Below, in pieces: positions 2,178 to 10,518 of a DNA stretch of 64,000 nt. Location: assembly GCA_963706595.1 (NCBI GenBank), contig OY970166.1:544001-608000 (forward strand), in the 5' to 3' direction. The stretch comes from an uncultured cyanobacterium (GTDB lineage: Bacteria; Cyanobacteriota; Cyanobacteriia; Cyanobacteriales; Nostocaceae). The stretch's first letter is position 1, and each line of letters starts with the position of its first letter. The position numbers and the translations under genes are program-made. The notes under the pieces were generated by a model, which saw only the letters and a list, made by a program, of their open reading frames with translations, had not been told where the DNA came from and did not search any database.

Positions 2178-4166
2178 TTAACTGTGTGATGGTTTGGAGA
2201 TGAGAAGCCAAAGAAAATAAGGTGTCCCGATGAGGGCTGTAACTAAGCCAGAAGGAATTTCTTGAGGAGCTAGGACAACACGACCCACGATATCAGCTAA
2301 AGTTACTAAAATTGCGCCTAAAATCGCCGCTATTGGTAATAATTGGCGGTGGCGATCGCCTATTAATATTCTGGCAGTATGGGGAGCAATTAACCCCACA
2401 AAGCTGATAGTTCCCACTGTCGATACTGCCGCAGCTGCCAAAGCAACAGCGATCGCTAATATTACACCACGAGATGCCTGTAAACGCATCCCTAAAATTC
2501 GGGGTAAGTCTTCCCCTAACGCCATTAAATCGAGTTTGCGGGCAAATAACCACCCCAAAGGCAGTAAAATCACCGGAAAAGCCAACAATTGCCACACCTC
2601 ATCCCACTGACGAGCGTAGGTGCTACCAGCTAGCCACACTAAAGCCTGGGCTACCTGCAATTTTGACTTCACCACTAATAGGTTAATTCCAGCCGCACAA
2701 AAGGCAGACACCGCAATTCCGACTAATGCTAGCCTCGCTGGTGCGACACCGTTTTGCCAAGCTGCTACATAAACTACCCCAAAGGCAACAACTGCACCGA
2801 TAAAAGCCCCCATTGGGATAAATGTCACAGGCGTATTAGGTATCATTACTATTACCAGCAAAGCACCAAATCCTGCTCCCGAAGTAATACCCATAATTTC
2901 CGGGCCAGCTAGGGGATTTCTCACTACTCCCTGCAACAATAAGCCACTGATAGCTAAAGCTGCCCCTGCTAATAATGCTACTAGTAGGCGGGGTAGGCGT
3001 AAGTACAAGACAATTCTTTCTGTGAGAGCGTCACTGTCACCAGCAATGACTTGAATGAGTTGATTAATATTTAAATTAATATTGCCGAGGGATACTCCCA
3101 AAACCAGCACAAATAATAGGCAAAATAACCCAGCTAAAACTAAAACAGGATACGGAAAACGGGGTTTTAGAGGTATTTTTAAACCATGATTTCCCCCAGA
3201 TTTACTCAATAAACGAGGCGATGAACGCACTAGCCAGACTAAAAACGGTGCGCCCAGTAAAGCTGTGATTCCACCCGCAGGTAATTCACTAGATATCTGT
3301 TGTGCAACTGTATCAGCAGCTAGTAAAACCACTGCTCCCCAAATTGCGGCAGATGGTAATAAAATCAGGTGTCGCCGACATCCCATTAATTTGACTATAT
3401 GGGGTGCAACTAAACCGACAAAGCCAATTGTCCCGACCACACTCACGGCTACAGAGGCTAAAAATACAGCTAGGAGGATACTGCATAAGCGTGTCCACTG
3501 CACTTTTGAACCCAAGGAACGAGCTAAATCTTCGCCTAGCAGTAGGACATCTAAGGGTTTGGCAATTGTGAAAACTGCGATCGCTCCTAATAATACTCTA
3601 GGTGCAGCATAAATACTTCCCTCCCAATTGGTTTGCACAAGGGAACCCGCACCCCAAAAAAATAAATCACTGGTTTCGTTTTCGTACAACAATTGTAAAG
3701 CGGAAGTGAACGCCGCTAAAGCCAAGGAAACCGCCATTCCTGAGAGGGTGAGCCTGATGGGGGTGATGTCTTTACCGACAGCAGCTATGGTGTATACAAG
3801 TAACGCCGCTAATAAACCACCCATAAATGCGATTAACAAAGGCGACCAAGCAAATATTTCTGGTGCAAATATGGTGGTGGCGGTGACGGCTAAATAAGCG
3901 CCAGCATTTACTCCTAATGTTGCGGGTGAGGCTAGGGGGTTACGGGTGACTGTCTGGAATAATGCGCCGGCTATTCCCAAGGCTGCACCTGCTAATATGC
4001 CAATTACGGTGCGGGGTAGTTTGATGTAACGCACGATGTTATGTAAGGCGCTATCATCTGGGGTGAATATGGCTGTGATAACGGTGGTGGGATGTTGGTT
4101 GATGTGGAGGAAGAGGAGGGTTAGTAGTATTAGGGTTCCTGTGATTAGGGGGCGAGTTTTGAGCAT
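2178..4166 (-). CDS. fhuB: Fe3+-hydroxamate ABC transporter permease, fused double FecCD domain
   Basis: 662 aa with two repeats of RLPR/RNPLA/G.I.FVGL.APH motifs. Confidence 0.9.
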   Translation of the reverse strand: MLKTRPLITGTLILLTLLFLHINQHPTTVITAIFTPDDSALHNIVRYIKLPRTVIGILAGAALGIAGALFQTVTRNPLASPATLGVNAGAYLAVTATTIFAPEIFAWSPLLIAFMGGLLAALLVYTIAAVGKDITPIRLTLSGMAVSLALAAFTSALQLLYENETSDLFFWGAGSLVQTNWEGSIYAAPRVLLGAIAVFTIAKPLDVLLLGEDLARSLGSKVQWTRLCSILLAVFLASVAVSVVGTIGFVGLVAPHIVKLMGCRRHLILLPSAAIWGAVVLLAADTVAQQISSELPAGGITALLGAPFLVWLVRSSPRLLSKSGGNHGLKIPLKPRFPYPVLVLAGLFCLLFVLVLGVSLGNINLNINQLIQVIAGDSDALTERIVLYLRLPRLLVALLAGAALAISGLLLQGVVRNPLAGPEIMGITSGAGFGALLVIVMIPNTPVTFIPMGAFIGAVVAFGVVYVAAWQNGVAPARLALVGIAVSAFCAAGINLLVVKSKLQVAQALVWLAGSTYARQWDEVWQLLAFPVILLPLGWLFARKLDLMALGEDLPRILGMRLQASRGVILAIAVALAAAAVSTVGTISFVGLIAPHTARILIGDRHRQLLPIAAILGAILVTLADIVGRVVLAPQEIPSGLVTALIGTPYFLWLLISKPSHS

Positions 4167-4226
4167 GGATTTATATCACGCAGAGGCGCAGAGACGCAGA
4201 GAATGAGAGTTTGAGAGTTTTATATT

Positions 4227-5132
4227 CTATTTGGTTAGGGATTTGATGACTTTTTCTATTAATATTTGGGCTGATAGGTGTCCGCCAAATAGCCAGGTGT
4301 CTGGTGCGATCGCATATAATCTTTTTTGTTGGACAAATTCTAGTCCTTTCCATACGGGGTTGTTTTGTAGTTGTTTTTGGTAGGTACTGTTGGGTGCTGG
4401 TATGTAGATGAAGTTGGCGTTTTCTACTTTTGGTAGTGCTTCTACCCAAACTGTATTGAAGCCAAAACGGTCAAAGTCTCCTTTCCAGGTGTTGTTTAAG
4501 CCGATGGCGGTTAGTATTTGTGCAGCCATTGAGTTATCTGTAAACAGGCGCATTTGAGGGGTGTTTTCACTGAATTGTGCTAGGATAAAATCAAGTTTTT
4601 CAGTATTTTTGATGGCAGTGGCTGCTTTTTGGATGGTGGTTTGTGTTTGTTGTATTACTGTCTCAGCTACATCTTGACGGTTGACACGTTCAGCAATTTG
4701 TCGGAATGTTTGCTGCATTTCATCTAGTTGACTCAATTCTCCCGCCGATGGATAGGGGTTAAAGAGTAGAGTGGGTGCGATCGCTGATAGGGTATCGTAG
4801 ATGGTTTGATGTCTTAACTCTACACCTAGTATTAAATCAGGTTTTAATTGCGCGATCGCTTCTAAACTCGGTTCTTGGCGTGTCCCTACATCAACTACAC
4901 TTTCAGCTAGGGATGGTTGTACGTTCACATATTTTTGATAGCCCCGGATATCTGCAACTCCTACAGGCTGGATTCCCAAGGCTAGGAGGTTTTCTGCATA
5001 CACCCATTCGAGAGCAACTACTTTAGTGGCAATTTTGCTAAAATTTTGGGGACGGGGAGAACGATTACAAGCTACTGTTAAGGCGGAAGCTGTCGCCGCA
5101 GTTAAAAAGTCACGTCTGGTAAATTTGCTCAT
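4227..5132 (-). CDS. fhuD: Iron-siderophore ABC transporter substrate-binding lipoprotein
   Basis: Tat-like TRRDFL plus lipobox LTVAC; VVALEW, DVGTRQEPSLE.I..LKPDLI motifs. Confidence 0.85.
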   Translation of the reverse strand: MSKFTRRDFLTAATASALTVACNRSPRPQNFSKIATKVVALEWVYAENLLALGIQPVGVADIRGYQKYVNVQPSLAESVVDVGTRQEPSLEAIAQLKPDLILGVELRHQTIYDTLSAIAPTLLFNPYPSAGELSQLDEMQQTFRQIAERVNRQDVAETVIQQTQTTIQKAATAIKNTEKLDFILAQFSENTPQMRLFTDNSMAAQILTAIGLNNTWKGDFDRFGFNTVWVEALPKVENANFIYIPAPNSTYQKQLQNNPVWKGLEFVQQKRLYAIAPDTWLFGGHLSAQILIEKVIKSLTK

Positions 5133-5241
5133 TTTGCTATAGCTATCCTATTTGAATTTATCGAACCGCCAAGTCGCCAAGGTCGCCAAGTGAAGAAGTA
5201 AAGATGCTATAAATTAATTTGTAATTCGTAATTCGTAATCC

Positions 5242-6057
5242 CTAATACCCAATCCCCATTTGAGAAGGTAAACAGGTAGGATAGCCATTGATTGGATGAG
5301 GAATCACTGTCATTTCTACATCGAATACTTGCTGAATTGTACTGGCTGTGATCACTTCTTTTGGTGTGCCAACGGCTACTACTTTTCCTTGCTTGAGCAT
5401 GATTAGGCGATCGCTATAAGCTGCGGCTTGATTTAAATCATGTAACACCCAACCAACGGTTATTCCATGTTCTTGGTTGAGTCGTCGCACTAAGCCTAAG
5501 ACTTCTATTTGATGGCGAATATCTAAAAATGTTGTGGGTTCATCCAGTAATAATACTTGGGTTTGCTGTGCTAAAGCCATCGCTATCCAAGCCCTTTGAC
5601 GTTCACCACCAGAAAGGCTATCTACTATTCTGTCTGCTAGGGGTTCTAGTCCGGTTACAGCTAACGCCCATTCCATCGCTGCAATATCTTTTGGAGAAAA
5701 ACCACCTAATAGATTCTGATGGGGATAGCGACCATAACCGATTAATTCCCACACAGTCACACTGGGCGGTGCTTCTGAGGATTGGGGTAATATTGTCAGT
5801 TTGCGTGCTAACTCTTTTGTGGGTATCTGGGTAATATTGCGACCGTTCAAATAAATAGCACCCTTATTTGCGGGAATAAGTCTTGCTAGGGTGCGTAACA
5901 CAGTACTTTTCCCAGAACCATTCGGCCCCAGTAATGCAGTGATTTCTCCCAGCAGAAACGTTACTGAGAGGTCAGCAACGATGATTTTGCCATCATAAGC
6001 AATTTGCAGATTTTGAGATGCGATCGCCGCAGGCGGGGCGTAGTCCATCGCCGACAA
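5242..6057 (-). CDS. fhuC: Iron-siderophore ABC transporter ATPase (ATG at 6048 may be the true start)
   Basis: GPNGSGKST, LSGGERQR, LLLDEPT motifs. Confidence 0.9.
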   Translation of the reverse strand: MSAMDYAPPAAIASQNLQIAYDGKIIVADLSVTFLLGEITALLGPNGSGKSTVLRTLARLIPANKGAIYLNGRNITQIPTKELARKLTILPQSSEAPPSVTVWELIGYGRYPHQNLLGGFSPKDIAAMEWALAVTGLEPLADRIVDSLSGGERQRAWIAMALAQQTQVLLLDEPTTFLDIRHQIEVLGLVRRLNQEHGITVGWVLHDLNQAAAYSDRLIMLKQGKVVAVGTPKEVITASTIQQVFDVEMTVIPHPINGYPTCLPSQMGIGY

Positions 6058-6245: not shown

Positions 6246-8576
6246 GTTTTATAGCATTATCTACTGTATACAATAATTTGCTCCTGTTTTTGCTCAACAG
6301 GCGATTGCCCTTATTTAGCCTATCAGAAAGGGGGAGCTAAAAAATTTTCCATAAATACTTGTGTAAATTCTGGAATAGAGATATTTTGATAAAGCCAGCA
6401 GCTACTGCCAATACAAATCAATAACTATCTGCGATAGATTATCACTAAGCATAATCCAGTTGCAAATTTCAGGTGTGAAGTGAACATGAAACCCGCAAAA
6501 ATCCTTTTTATTCTCTTATTTACAGGCTCTGTTTGGTCATTAATCAACCATCCTGGTAAAAGTCAGGAAGCAGAGAAAATCAAAACCTCATCCCTTGACA
6601 CCCATTTACTGACACAATCACCTAACCCTCAGAAATTGATTCAAGTGACTGGCGTGAGGGTTGTGCCTACAGATCAAGGTGTAGAGGTAATATTAGAAAC
6701 TAACGCCGCCGAAGAATTACAGGTATCAACGGAAAATCAAGGTAATAGTTTAATTGCTGATATCACTAACGCTCAATTGAATCTGTCTTCAGGAAATACA
6801 TTCAGCCAGGAAAATCCAGCCACAGGTGTCACTGCTGTAACCGTTGTTAATCAAGATGACAATACTATCCGGGTGACGGTGACTGGTGAGCAAACCATTC
6901 CCAAGGTTGTATTATTTGATAGTGATACAGGTTTAATTTTAGCCTTCACACCTACAGAAGTAGTCGCCGCCCCAACACCGCCAGAAACACCACCAGAAAC
7001 GCTACCAGAACCTCAAACCCAATCAGAAGCGGATCAACCGATTGAATTAGTAGTAACAGCAACGCGTACAGCAGCACCGATCCAAAATGTACCGCGTTCA
7101 ATCACGGTAATTAACCGCGAACAAATTGAGGAACAAACCAGCCTTTCCCGCAACTTAATCGAAACTTTGGGTAAAACGGTTCCTGGTTTAGCACCTCCAG
7201 CACAAGGCGCGAGTAATTTTGGATTGACTTTACGGGGAAGAAATCCCCAAGTTTTGATTGATGGTGTTCCCCAATCGACTACTCGAAATGCGGCGCGTGA
7301 TTTGAGAACCATTGACTCTGCGGCGATTGAACGAATTGAAGTAGTGCGTGGTCCTAGTGCAATTTATGGCGATGGTGCGACAGGGGGTGTGATTAACATC
7401 ATCACACGACGACCAACTACAGAAAGTTTGATTTCGCGGACAGAATTAGGTGTGAGTGCAGCTTTAGGTAATCTGGAAGAGGAAAGTTTTAGCACCAATT
7501 TACAGCATTTTCTCTCGGTGAGACAGGATAATCTCGATTTTACCTTTAACTTTGGACTGGCGAAAACCGGCGGATTTTTTGATGCTGAAGGCGATCGCAT
7601 TCCTTCTGATCCTAATGGTCAAGGTGGCTTTTCGGATGCTTCGAGTTTTAACTTATTTGGAAAGTTCGGTATTGATTTAGATGCGAATCAACGTGTACAA
7701 CTAACTTTTAATCACTTCGACGAAAAGCAAGATACAAATATTGCTAGTGACCCCAGTGTTAATACTACCCCTGGAAGACAAAAGGCGCGTGCTTTGACAG
7801 GGTTGAGTTTGGATGAAAAACCAGGACACGAAAACACTTTGTTCAACTTGCATTACAGTCATGAGGACTTATTTAATAGTAAGTTGCAAGCACAGTTATA
7901 TTACCGGGATTACCTGACACGCTTCTATCCCTTTGATGCTCGTAATTTTGCCAGTTTAGGTAACGAAATCTTTCAATCACGGGTAGAGTCAGAAAAGTAT
8001 GGCGGACGCTTGCAGATTGAAACGCCTCTATTTGACCAGGGTGCAGCTAAAATACTTTGGGGTGTGGATTACTCCAAAGAAAATACATCCCAACCTGTAT
8101 CTGTATTTGATCAAGCTGCGTTTGTGTCCAGTGGGGGGTTAGCATTTCGTAAAACAGGCGATCGCTCTTGGACTCCGCCTTTAGAATTAAGAAGCCTGGG
8201 ATTGTTTGCTCAGTTGAATTGGGAGCTAGGCGATCGCATAGTATTAAATGGTGGTGTCCGCTACGAAAATGCTGATGTGAGTGTGGATGATTTCAGCACC
8301 TTAGCCAATCCCAACTCAACTATTCCCGGTGGTGATTTAAATTTTGATGCGACTTTGTTCAATATCGGTGCAGTGTACGCCCTTAACCCAGAACTAAGCA
8401 TCTTTGCTAACTATGCTCAAGGTTTCTCATTATCAGATATTGGTTTAGTCCTCCGCAATGCCCAACCAGGATTTTCTGTAGAATCTCTGAATCCAGAACC
8501 ACAAAAAGTAGATAACTATGAAATTGGGATTCGGGGACAATGGGATTCTGTCCAAGCATCTCTGGCGGCATTTTAT

Positions 8577-9990
8577 CAAATAATTGGGTTAAAAACCCCG
8601 TGCTTGCAGCACGGCTTTAATTTACTAGACAAAATAGTGTTAGTAAATATCTTGTAGAATAGTCAAATGCTAACCATGAATTACCGCTATCGAATCTACC
8701 CGACTATCACCCAAGAACAAACACTTCTTGAGTGGATGGATATTTGTCGCGTTGCCTACAACTATGGGTTGCGAGAAATTAAGGACTGGTGCAATAGTCG
8801 TAAGTGCATGGTTGACAGATGTTCGATTAGTCATGAATATATCATAGCTGCGGACGCTCCTTTCCCTGGTGAAGTGCGCCAACTTAATGCTTTGCCAAAA
8901 GCTAAAAAAGTATTTCCCCGATTAAGCGAAGTACCAAGTCAGGTTTTGCAGCAAGCACTCAAACAATTACACCGAGCATGGGAGGGATTTCAGAAAATTG
9001 GGCATGGGTTTCCCAGATTTAAAAAGTTTGGGCAGTTCAAGTCTTTGCTGTTCCCTCAGTTTAAACAGAACCCAGTGCAAGGAATACATATTGCGCTGCC
9101 TAAACTGGGATTGATTCAGATTAACTGGCATCGCCCAATTCCAAATGGATTTGTGGTTAAGCAAGTTCGGATAATTAACAAAGCCAATGTTTGGTACGCT
9201 TCTATCAACATTCAATGTGATGTTAATGTTCCTAGTCCCATGCCGCATGGTCATCCCATTGGGGTAGATGTAGGACTGGAAAAGTTTTTAGCAACCAGTG
9301 ATGGTGTTCTCGTCAAATCGCCCAAATTCCTGAAAGTGATGCAAAGCCAGCTGAAATTGCTGCAACGCAGGCTGTCTCGGAAAAAGAAGCGTTCTAAAAA
9401 TTACGAGAAACAACGCATCAAGGTTGCTAGACTTCACCACAGGATTGATAACACCCGCAAAGATTACCATTTCAAACAAGCTCATGCTCTTTGTGATGCT
9501 GGTGATATGGTCTTCATGGAAGACTTGGATTACCGGACTTTAGCAAAAGGAATGCTTGGGTTACAGATGCTTGATGCTGGGTTTGGACAATTCCGAACCA
9601 TCACCAAGTACGTGTGTTGGAAACGTGGTAAATTCTTTGCTGAAGTTAGCGCTAGGGGAACTTCTCAAGAGTGTCCCGAATGTGGTGCAGAAGTTAGAAA
9701 AGACTTGAGCGTTAGAGTGCATCATTGCCCTAGTTGTAATTACACGACTGATAGAGATGTTGCTAGTGGTCAAGTAATTAGAAACAGAGGAATTCAATTA
9801 ATTAGTACCGATGGGCAGTCGGGAATCCAAAACGCCTATGCAGACGGTTTTCCGGGGATTGAAGAAATTCAGTCTAGGTCAAAGTCGAAAACCCGTAAGA
9901 CTCGCTTTGAGCGCAGTCCCAAGGAAGCAACTAGGAAAACTAAGAAGTGATTCTTAGAAGCTCCGTACCTTTAGGTCGGAGTCATGTCAC
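8577..9990 (+). mobile_element. Non-autonomous IS200/IS605-family (IS1341-type, tnpB-only) insertion, 1414 bp
   Basis: Inserted 3' of TTTAT with no target duplication; left hairpin CCGTGC-TTGCA-GCACGG; right hairpin CTCCG-TACCTTTAGGT-CGGAG ending in TCAC; no tnpA. Confidence 0.92.
8667..9950 (+). CDS. tnpB: RNA-guided endonuclease TnpB
   Basis: N-terminal YRYRIYPT, RuvC-I GVDVG, RuvC-II MEDL, Zn finger CPECG..CPSC, RuvC-III DRD. Confidence 0.93.
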   Translation: MLTMNYRYRIYPTITQEQTLLEWMDICRVAYNYGLREIKDWCNSRKCMVDRCSISHEYIIAADAPFPGEVRQLNALPKAKKVFPRLSEVPSQVLQQALKQLHRAWEGFQKIGHGFPRFKKFGQFKSLLFPQFKQNPVQGIHIALPKLGLIQINWHRPIPNGFVVKQVRIINKANVWYASINIQCDVNVPSPMPHGHPIGVDVGLEKFLATSDGVLVKSPKFLKVMQSQLKLLQRRLSRKKKRSKNYEKQRIKVARLHHRIDNTRKDYHFKQAHALCDAGDMVFMEDLDYRTLAKGMLGLQMLDAGFGQFRTITKYVCWKRGKFFAEVSARGTSQECPECGAEVRKDLSVRVHHCPSCNYTTDRDVASGQVIRNRGIQLISTDGQSGIQNAYADGFPGIEEIQSRSKSKTRKTRFERSPKEATRKTKK

Positions 9991-10518
9991 AACGAGTCGG
10001 ACTTAGGTACAACCTTCACCGCACCGGGGACTATAATTCGCGCCCCAGAAAGAATCTATGGTTTAGAAGCCGCAATTGACGCACAAGCTAGCCCTACATG
10101 GCAATTTGGCGGGACATTCACCCTAATTGGCGGGGAAATTGACAGGAATAATAATGGCGATTACGAATCTTTAGATGGGTTTAGAATTCCCCCCTTAAAA
10201 CTGACTGCGTATGTAGAAAATGAGACTTTACCTGGTTGGCGAAATCGTCTACAAGCTTTGTTCTCTGGTGATCGAGAAGTGTTTGCTAATAACAATACCG
10301 CCTTTGGTAGAAGACCTGTAGAAAGTTACTTGACAGTGGACTATATTAGCAGCGTGAAACTTGGCACAGGGACATTACAAATAGGGTTAGAAAACCTATT
10401 TAATAGTCAATATTTTCCTGTAGTTTCACAACTGCAACCCAATGATAGTGCCTACGCTGCGGCTAGGGGTAGAACTGTGAGTATTAAATATTCTGTTGAT
10501 TGGTAAAGTTGCATCATG

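Follow-up and report, generated by a model that had tools for sequence, protein, structure and literature searches.

A tnpB-only IS200/IS605-family element within a siderophore receptor gene of a Nostocaceae cyanobacterium

Insertion sequences of the IS1341 group are defined by the possession of tnpB alone, by hairpins at both ends, by the lack of terminal inverted repeats and of target duplication, and by insertion 3' of a tetra- or pentanucleotide (PMC13565253). In Geobacillus stearothermophilus, ISGst2 is reported to encode a TnpB (GstTnpB2) with a measured TAM of TTTAT and to end in the motif TTCAC; the same report describes tnpA-less elements that are mobilized in trans and retained through cutting of the empty site (bioRxiv 10.1101/2023.03.14.532601). 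The mechanism has also been measured for ISDra2 TnpB of Deinococcus radiodurans, for which the published account gives a reRNA of ~150 nt that overlaps the end of tnpB and includes a ~16-nt guide derived from the flank (Karvelis et al., 2021, PMC8612924; PDB 8bf8, 8h1j). The TnpB of ISAam1 is reported as a 369-aa protein with TAM TTTAA (PMC13639567), and Group A IStrons are reported to insert after TTGAT, ATTAT or TTTAT, often within genes and often without tnpA (PMC13565253).

Against this background, the locus described here is nothing new in kind: it is an ordinary representative of a family that has been studied well. It offers a clean worked example, in which empty sites and covariation set the ends, motif, scaffold and guide for a TnpB family that is widespread in cyanobacteria (161 matching stretches in a species-level genome collection); with these parts defined, it could readily be taken forward as a candidate compact nuclease with TTTAT/NTTAT as its motif.

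The element, its ends and its insertion motif

The element, a 1414-bp tnpB-only insertion sequence of the IS200/IS605 family (IS1341 group), occupies 8577..9990 on the forward strand of the window, the whole 64,000-nt stretch of DNA that was analysed. It lies within a gene for a TonB-dependent siderophore receptor, separating a 5' part of 699 codons (6480..8576, forward strand), in which domain matches cover the AMIN domain, the plug and most of the barrel, from a 3' part of 171 codons (9991..10506, forward strand) that is recognized by frame and domain matches and is severed from its start. The frame of the 5' part reads 27 codons into the element, to a stop at 8657. Divergent from the receptor, and given as context, are fhuB-, fhuD- and fhuC-like ferric siderophore ABC transporter genes (2178..6057, reverse strand; profile matches); the FhuB match is above its cut-off and the best matches of the other two genes are below theirs.

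A sequence-only reading had placed a tnpB-only insertion behind TTTAT at 8572..8576, with TCAC at 9990 as its right end and no target duplication, and had noted that its removal restores the receptor frame. All of this is borne out, the ends being fixed by exact empty sites and a second copy. The flanks are contiguous in G001 and G004, two relatives with an intact receptor allele, and the joint falls exactly at 8576|9991. A contig of metagenome run X1, which differs from the window at 39 of 1267 letters, likewise skips 8577–9990; 0 letters fit both sides of its joint, and there is therefore no target duplication. The other copies called for by that reading include one at C1:4596908–4598321 in this genome's own assembly (G000, with C1 its contig label), which has 95.4% identity, the same motif and identical ends; its site is contiguous and unoccupied in 8 of the 10 congeners compared. 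Cutting out 8577–9990 does yield a single open frame of 870 codons (junction ...LAAFY|NESDLG...; the intact G001 receptor has 873 aa), but so do 546 left/right pairs of cuts within the ranges scanned, so that the frame argument alone is weak and was dismissed as proof of the ends.

Comparison of ends and folding give each end its parts: on the left (8592..8614, forward strand) a DNA guide tetranucleotide AAAA at 8592–8595 and a subterminal hairpin at 8598–8614, and on the right (9957..9990, forward strand) the DNA guide GAAG at 9957–9960, a hairpin at 9961–9981 and the terminal motif TCAC at 9987–9990. The two hairpins have folding z-scores of −2.5 and −2.6, and the right one shows covariation in 3 of 5 pairs. 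Read directly, the two end sequences are not complementary, and the element has no terminal inverted repeats. There is no tnpA inside it; tnpB begins 90 bp past the left end, and 1414 bp leaves no room for one.

The element is mobile, and the left ends of its copies define the motif, which lies outside the element (8572..8576, forward strand) and is the predicted TAM. All 12 close left ends, each at a different site, are preceded by TTAT, and all 14 close right ends terminate in TCAC. TTTAT, the motif first proposed, is present at this site and at 9 of the 12; the remaining three follow CTTAT, ATTAT or GTTAT, so that only TTAT is invariant and the transposase motif is best written as TTAT with a bias towards a preceding T. 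Across the wider family, 40 of 41 parsed left ends have TTAT and 33 have TTTAT, with a background frequency of T ahead of TTAT of 0.38. For the three copies with another base, the site before insertion was sought in the present genome: one (L051) has a clean orthologous empty site there, also non-T; a second (L062) has a diverged, non-T match of the right flank only; and nothing usable was found for the third (L063). The T bias is non-diagnostic as a sign of retention by TnpB, given that tnpB-less mini-elements of the TGAC family are T-biased too (T in 5 of 8 and C in the other 3, against a background of 0.37) and that the transposase may read five bases.

Among 87 family loci, none has tnpA upstream and one has a different Y1 gene lying past its right end. 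The cognate tnpA that the earlier reading suggested seeking has a candidate in an autonomous element present at C1:449065 and C1:675576 (L002/L003). Its TnpA scores above the IS200 transposase cut-off, and the left end of this autonomous element forms a near-identical hairpin of the same type, which several family members have letter for letter. The rule by which DNA guides pair with the insertion motif is known from IS608, and L002 is consistent with pairing of that type. This genome has six Y1 transposase candidates, and the L002/L003 TnpA is the most likely helper in trans. In G003, G006, G007 and G009, four congeners in which all or part of the tnpB element is present, no close homolog of this TnpA was found (best identity 31–44%); the helper may thus be a different TnpA or may since have disappeared.

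TnpB, its predicted RNA and its predicted guide

The tnpB gene (8667..9950, forward strand) encodes 427 aa with HTH, OrfB_IS605 and TNB domains and a tail of ~50 aa encoded over the RNA scaffold. The claim that the three RuvC acidic residues and the zinc finger are present holds under alignment: D201 (9267–9269), E285 (9519–9521) and D364 (9756–9758) align with ISDra2 TnpB chain 8bf8 and do not vary among the 12 family proteins compared, and Cys336, Cys339, Cys354 and Cys357 form the finger. Homology to ISDra2 TnpB extends over residues 73–376 (E 1.2e-34). The NCBIfam model guided_TnpB matches at 282 bits (cut-off 100), and the narrow model IS200_TnpB (NF038281) at 219.8 bits, below its curated cut-off of 425. 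Membership in the IS607 family was rejected, IS607_TnpB reaching 101.5 bits against a cut-off of 350 and the ends being of IS605 type. With no stops and a core dN/dS of 0.06–0.19 in 13 pairwise comparisons, TnpB is intact and, by its substitution pattern, under purifying selection.

An omega-RNA (reRNA) scaffold is predicted at 9808..9990 (forward strand), its 5' end being a prediction as well. The call is based on covariation among 46 sequences, which replaced a single-sequence fold (9790–10010) with a z-score of only −2.35. Two-sided changes occur in 26 of 40 pairs and 96% of cells are paired; none of 500 shuffles scored as high, and slid controls had 28–48% of cells paired. The helices are at 9808–9822, 9835–9838/9932–9935, 9843–9845/9884–9886, 9858–9873 and 9939–9958 (forward strand). 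A pseudoknot is possible between GTGA (9947–9950) and TCAC (9987–9990) on the same strand; it shows no covariation in the aligned rows, where its 3' side was constant by row selection. An Rfam scan of 8400–10200 gave 0 matches at E up to 1. One loop holds a 24-nt in-frame insert (9897..9920, forward strand), present in 6 of 46 aligned rows and resembling a short dispersed repeat, its 14-nt core having 36 exact matches in the genome against 0.11 expected; the literature search returned nothing on such a repeat family beyond citations of similarly titled work.

By analogy with ISDra2, the 16-nt guide would be AACGAGTCGGACTTAG (9991..10006, forward strand), taken from the receptor's own 3' part. 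The proposals that the omega-RNA comes from the right end and the guide from the 3' flanking DNA find support, at the level of sequence, in the covarying scaffold and in the predicted guide. Identity with the intact allele of G001 extends over 29 nt from the guide; the G004 allele has one mismatch, at position 9. TTTAT is a plausible TAM, being the one measured for ISGst2 TnpB2. Within this genome, no TTAT-plus-guide site has two or fewer mismatches in 12 nt to this guide; the guide of the second copy has a single site at 1 mismatch in 12 nt, and no site within three mismatches in 16 nt.

Probable course of events and possible routes to fixation of the insertion

Taken as a whole, the locus is probably best explained by an element, mobilized in trans, that recently split the receptor gene and whose RNA-guided TnpB cuts empty sites, repair then restoring the element. 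The undecayed receptor halves point to a recent event: against the intact G001 allele, the 5' part has a dN/dS of 0.145 and no internal stop, and the 3' part a dN/dS of 0.18. RNA production, TAM, cleavage, repair and helper identity are modelled here on the family. A Y1 transposase encoded elsewhere would have peeled out the non-autonomous element and pasted it as single-stranded DNA 3' of (T)TTAT, dividing an accessory siderophore receptor gene. TnpB would bind an RNA made of the element's last ~180 nt and ~16 nt of receptor sequence, and would cut any DNA in which TTTAT is followed by the guide sequence, whether the empty site left by excision, a chromosome copy that the element has yet to reach or an intact allele arriving from outside; repair templated by a copy with the element would reinstate it.

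That the knockout then became fixed by ordinary segregation and drift, in a receptor that was not needed and with a TnpB that may be active but is not required here, falls a little short of an even call. The fhu-receptor cluster is, by gene content, dispensable within the genus: of 10 congeners, just 2 have it whole, G002 keeps a remnant left by deletion, and the search did not find it in the other 7. This genome has nine further TonB-receptor barrel matches, one of which (C1:5549585–5550718) lacks its 5' half, lost at a place where there is no tnpB match, and the event is recent. However, TnpB and scaffold are under purifying selection across the family, which means that the nuclease helps these elements persist somewhere, and the intact G001 and G004 alleles are too (dN/dS 0.155), so that the receptor must be of use in some settings. 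More tentatively, TnpB may have cut chromosome copies with an intact receptor, driving the knockout through all of them more rapidly than segregation would have done. TnpB and IscB are reported to be able to cleave sister chromosomes without a newly integrated element (Meers et al., bioRxiv 10.1101/2023.03.14.532601), Anabaena PCC 7120 is reported to have a mean of 8.2 chromosome copies (PMC10949235), the intact allele offers a perfect target, and the empty-site sequence is absent from this genome's assembly, a consensus that cannot show allele ratios. Yet eight mini-elements without their own tnpB also persist in that assembly, and the dispensability of the cluster weighs on this side too. 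Such a drive is an extension of the published model on which the locus itself gives no evidence, and the assembly cannot distinguish it from the ordinary segregation of an insertion that is nearly neutral; the four sequence runs compared are contigs of related strains, uninformative on allele mixing in this strain (the best run contained only 0.33 of the window's words and none reached half). Put generally, and held with the same reserve, tnpB-only elements might be natural within-cell drives in multi-copy cyanobacterial chromosomes: cutting and repair would copy a single new insertion to every chromosome, and, the G001 allele being a perfect target, incoming intact alleles would be cut or converted and the knockout locked in. 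The fifth-base T bias could then partly record insertions that TnpB can defend. If true, this would account for the spread of single insertions to every chromosome copy in polyploid prokaryotes and for the locking out of accessory genes; a literature search of titles and abstract openings, covering few subscription journals, found no test of TnpB drive in polyploid cyanobacteria.

It is unlikely that this copy's TnpB is inactive or silent and the element a passive passenger, although TnpB activity is reported to vary widely, with 25 of 64 TnpBs active in an E. coli screen (PMC13639567) and IS608 TnpB inactive although intact-looking (bioRxiv 10.1101/2023.03.14.532601). The 24-nt scaffold insert is missing from 40 of the 46 rows; the sole upstream promoter-like site (8626–8653) was discounted, the scan being at chance level (4 sites found, 4.4 expected); and RNA-run contigs span tnpB, none passing 9775 into the 3' part of the scaffold, though as contigs of related strains they cannot show absence. 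Against such passivity stand the intact catalytic and zinc residues, the lack of stops and the selected core, as well as the insert's position in a loop, in frame and common to copies spread through several genomes. That the knockout was to the host's advantage, for instance if phages or toxins enter through the receptor, with exact excision as a slow reversible switch, is very improbable. Excision would restore the frame exactly, and TonB-dependent receptors serve as phage and bacteriocin receptors in other bacteria; however, none of the other genomes searched carries an insertion here, and an active TnpB would oppose reversion.

Comparison with known systems

The element shares with the IS1341 group the possession of tnpB alone, hairpins at both ends, the lack of terminal inverted repeats and of target duplication, and insertion 3' of a tetra- or pentanucleotide. 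Group A IStrons resemble it in motif (TTTAT/ATTAT), location in a gene and lack of tnpA; an IStron was rejected, since there is no group I intron, with only 90 bp ahead of tnpB and no Rfam match, and the receptor gene is therefore not rescued by splicing. ISAam1, which is of cyanobacterial origin, likewise has an IS605-type TnpB and a T-rich TAM that was identified from the ends of the element; compared by description, it differs in motif and in protein length (369 aa, against 427 aa here). ISDra2, unlike this element, carries tnpA and uses TTGAT, and the predicted scaffold here is longer (~180 nt, against ~150 nt), with covarying helices of its own and the 24-nt insert. By described features, the likeness to ISGst2 lies in the motif, the predicted TAM being the same as that measured for its TnpB2, in the terminal motif, and in the mobilization in trans and retention through cutting of the empty site that are proposed for the present element; the host belongs to another phylum, the end here reads GTCAC, and the fifth motif base is here a bias rather than a rule.

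Element boundaries and insertion motif

The tnpB-only element (8577-9990) lies directly downstream of TTTAT (8572-8576, outside the element) and terminates in TCAC (9987-9990). It divides a plus-strand TonB-dependent receptor gene that starts at 6480; its frame breaks off at 8576 and resumes at 9991 with the C-terminal part of TIGR01783. Removal of the 1414 bp between TTTAT and the end of TCAC restores an open receptor frame, as the sequence-only reading had claimed, with a length of 870 codons; this restoration does not prove the ends, because 546 pairs of cut points across the ranges scanned likewise keep the frame open. Empty sites independently fix those ends and bear out the claimed lack of a duplication: among 40 relatives searched, two congeners carry the flanks contiguously at the joint 8576|9991 (G001, 95%/93%; G004, 90%), and a contig of metagenome run X1 that comes from a related strain (39 differences in 1267 letters) skips exactly 8577-9990, with zero letters common at the joint. 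A search for other copies recovered a second, gapless copy in the same genome (G000:C1:4596908-4598321; L007:5909-7322; 95.4% identity) that likewise follows TTTAT and ends in TCAC. In 8/10 congeners the site of this copy is uninterrupted and lacks the element (junctions displayed for seven genomes); the remaining two have no element there and a diverged spacer.

The second copy lies 33 bp upstream of sppA, in the same orientation. It splits TTTAT|ATT, the TATATT hexamer is kept in the seven displayed empty sites, and the insertion may have replaced the sppA -10 box. A further X1 joint, 8610 to 9733, places the left end next to the scaffold region and skips ~1122 bp, with only 39 letters on one side; it is possibly an internal-deletion derivative that has lost tnpB while keeping the RNA and the two ends.

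Insertion motifs were tallied in two partly overlapping sets, within which kin are not independent. The close-copy tally comprises 16 distinct left-end rows: 12 close copies (94-100% across 50 nt), each from a different site, two less closely related rows preceded by GTTAT and TTTAT, and two rows from another element. TTAT precedes 12/12 close copies and TTTAT 9/12, the others having CTTAT, ATTAT, and GTTAT; TCAC terminates 14/14 close right ends. The wider-family tally used the best 80 of the 161 stretches that matched, among which the closest named loci are from Nodularia. Upstream sequence was long enough at 74 loci; the left end was parsed in 41 of these and unparsed in 33; TTAT precedes 40 of the parsed ends and TTTAT 33. 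The bias toward T at the fifth base is real, since T precedes only 0.38 of genomic TTAT sites (nominal P 0.01 for 9/12 and 1e-8 for 33/40). Despite this bias, the transposase core motif is TTAT; the TTTAT motif proposed earlier holds at the window site and the second copy but not as a rule. Terminal TGTCAC occurs in 70/81 loci listed, with any last base permitted; ten have no end and one an internal match only. Under the IS608 guide rule, a guide tetranucleotide at each end is matched to the motif. The element ends fit this rule (left AAAA/TTAT, right GAAG/TCAC), as do those of L002, an autonomous tnpA-bearing element of the same genome (CAAG/TGAC and GAAT/TCAA).

TnpB and its predicted RNA

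The tnpB gene (8667-9950, 427 aa) matches Pfam HTH_OrfB_IS605, OrfB_IS605, and Cas12f1-like_TNB and NCBIfam guided_TnpB (282 bits; cut-off 100), and its product aligns with ISDra2 TnpB (8bf8; E 1.2e-34). The RuvC acidic residues (D201, E285, D364) and the four zinc-finger cysteines are present, as first read, and the triad is invariant in 12/12 aligned proteins. Across 13 pairwise comparisons, dN/dS is 0.06-0.19 for codons 1-375; it is 0.28-1.19 for the tail overlying the RNA. Within 8577-8666, the truncated receptor frame extends 27 codons past the left boundary of the element, and its stop lies 9 bp short of the tnpB ATG, both frames being on one strand; tnpB and its RNA could therefore be transcribed from the receptor promoter, which is probably iron-regulated.

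Seven helices, starting at 9808, precede the DNA end hairpin and point to a predicted RNA scaffold of ~180 nt at the right end. Covariation supports such a structured RNA: in a 46-row alignment (the window plus 45 of 60 distinct right-end regions, hand-picked and selected for TGTCAC), scored against RNAalifold output with three helices added by the analyst, 96% of cells were paired and 26/40 pairs showed two-sided changes. None of 500 shuffles scored as high, and slid controls were 28-48% paired. A search of Rfam returned no match. A candidate pseudoknot between GTGA (9947-9950) and TCAC is a lead only, because it lacks covariation, one pair is broken in 10/46 rows, and the rows were selected for TGTCAC.

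The ISDra2 reRNA comprises ~150 nt of right end and ~16 nt of flank (PMC8612924). By analogy, the predicted guide would be 9991-10006, which corresponds to the intact G001 allele in a match over 29 nt and to that of G004 with one mismatch; the G000 assembly, a consensus sequence, contains no near target. Guide positions 9996-10001 repeat the GTCGGA of the terminal hairpin 3' arm (9975-9980), and the guide could thus compete for the 5' arm, lowering activity of the window copy.

Candidate helper transposase and mini-elements

No tnpA was found upstream of family members in 87 loci, within up to 1.5 kb (some flanks shorter), and the family is therefore non-autonomous; one of the 87 has a different Y1 gene beyond its right end. 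At L082:2804-3133, a family member directly abuts a Y1 gene with 76% identity to the L005 gene of G000, and was apparently inserted into its start. The search for a cognate tnpA gave six Y1 transposase matches in G000 and one candidate helper, the twin element L002/L003 (C1:449065 and C1:675576). Its IS200 transposase scores over cut-off. The hairpin at its left end matches that of the tnpB element in type and is identical in sequence to that of several family members. Against this helper, the element occurs, whole or in part, in four congeners (G003, G006, G007, G009) that have no close homolog of the L002/L003 TnpA. In Geobacillus, a single TnpA excised five families of elements whose motifs differ (bioRxiv 10.1101/2023.03.14.532601).

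The genome also contains eight mini-elements of ~185-210 bp with the L002/L003 left end (ends at C1:321045, 350285, 1098255, 1428461, 2015115, 3448579, 4847235, and 5027496), plus a ninth right end that lacks this left end. The eight have no ORF, follow TTGAC (five) or CTGAC (three), and end in TCAA or, once, TCAC. They are probably non-autonomous partners of L002/L003 and may retain an omega-RNA. A short dispersed repeat (36 exact 14-nt cores in G000 versus 0.11 expected) has entered hairpin loops: in frame, one in the window's RNA scaffold (9897-9920), and others at the left ends of mini-elements (an example lies near G000:C1:350285) and of certain members of the tnpB family.

Receptor loss, proposed allelic drive, and known systems

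The receptor gene is divergent from minus-strand fhuB-, fhuD-, and fhuC-like genes (2178-6057), together forming a ferric-siderophore uptake cluster. The intact G001 allele is an 873-aa ORF. The two receptor halves are undecayed, with dN/dS against G001 (0.145 and 0.18) like that between the intact G001 and G004 alleles (0.155), indicating a recent insertion. Of 10 congeners (completeness 91-100%), two have the whole cluster and one has a remnant; in seven it was not found. The remnant (G002:C1:2806489-2808677) is a deleted fhu cluster without the receptor, an independent loss. G000 has nine further receptor-barrel matches, one 5'-truncated; this second siderophore receptor gene (C1:5549585-5550718) retains its 3' 378 codons, has 51-53% identity to the window receptor, and is directly preceded by a regulator-like ORF, AraC-like by eye.

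The sequence-only reading further proposed that TnpB, by cutting the intact allele, could fix the knockout in a polyploid host. The idea extends a published model, in which Meers et al. (bioRxiv 10.1101/2023.03.14.532601) describe TnpB and IscB as able to cut a sister chromosome that has not received a newly integrated element. Anabaena PCC 7120 is polyploid, averaging 8.2 copies, a figure for that strain and not for this host (PMC10949235). Such drive is unnecessary, because mini-elements without tnpB, which might use TnpB in trans, occur in the same assembly, because the cluster is whole in only 2/10 congeners, and because the genome has the other receptor-barrel matches. A literature search of titles and abstract starts found no paper testing TnpB drive in a polyploid prokaryote. 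We consider TnpB-driven fixation conceivable but somewhat doubtful.

The observation underlying that reading is correct. NCBIfam scoring ruled out an IS607 element, and Rfam, with no match, an IStron. The element has those features of the IS1341 group, as defined in section 5.1 of PMC13565253, that can be read from sequence, mobilization in trans being probable, and likewise those of TnpB OMEGA systems, with a predicted nuclease activity and a predicted RNA; element tables of TnpB screens may already contain the family. Its mechanism is quite probably that of known TnpB elements, and we liken it to ISGst2, for which bioRxiv 10.1101/2023.03.14.532601 gives a measured TAM of TTTAT and the terminal motif TTCAC.
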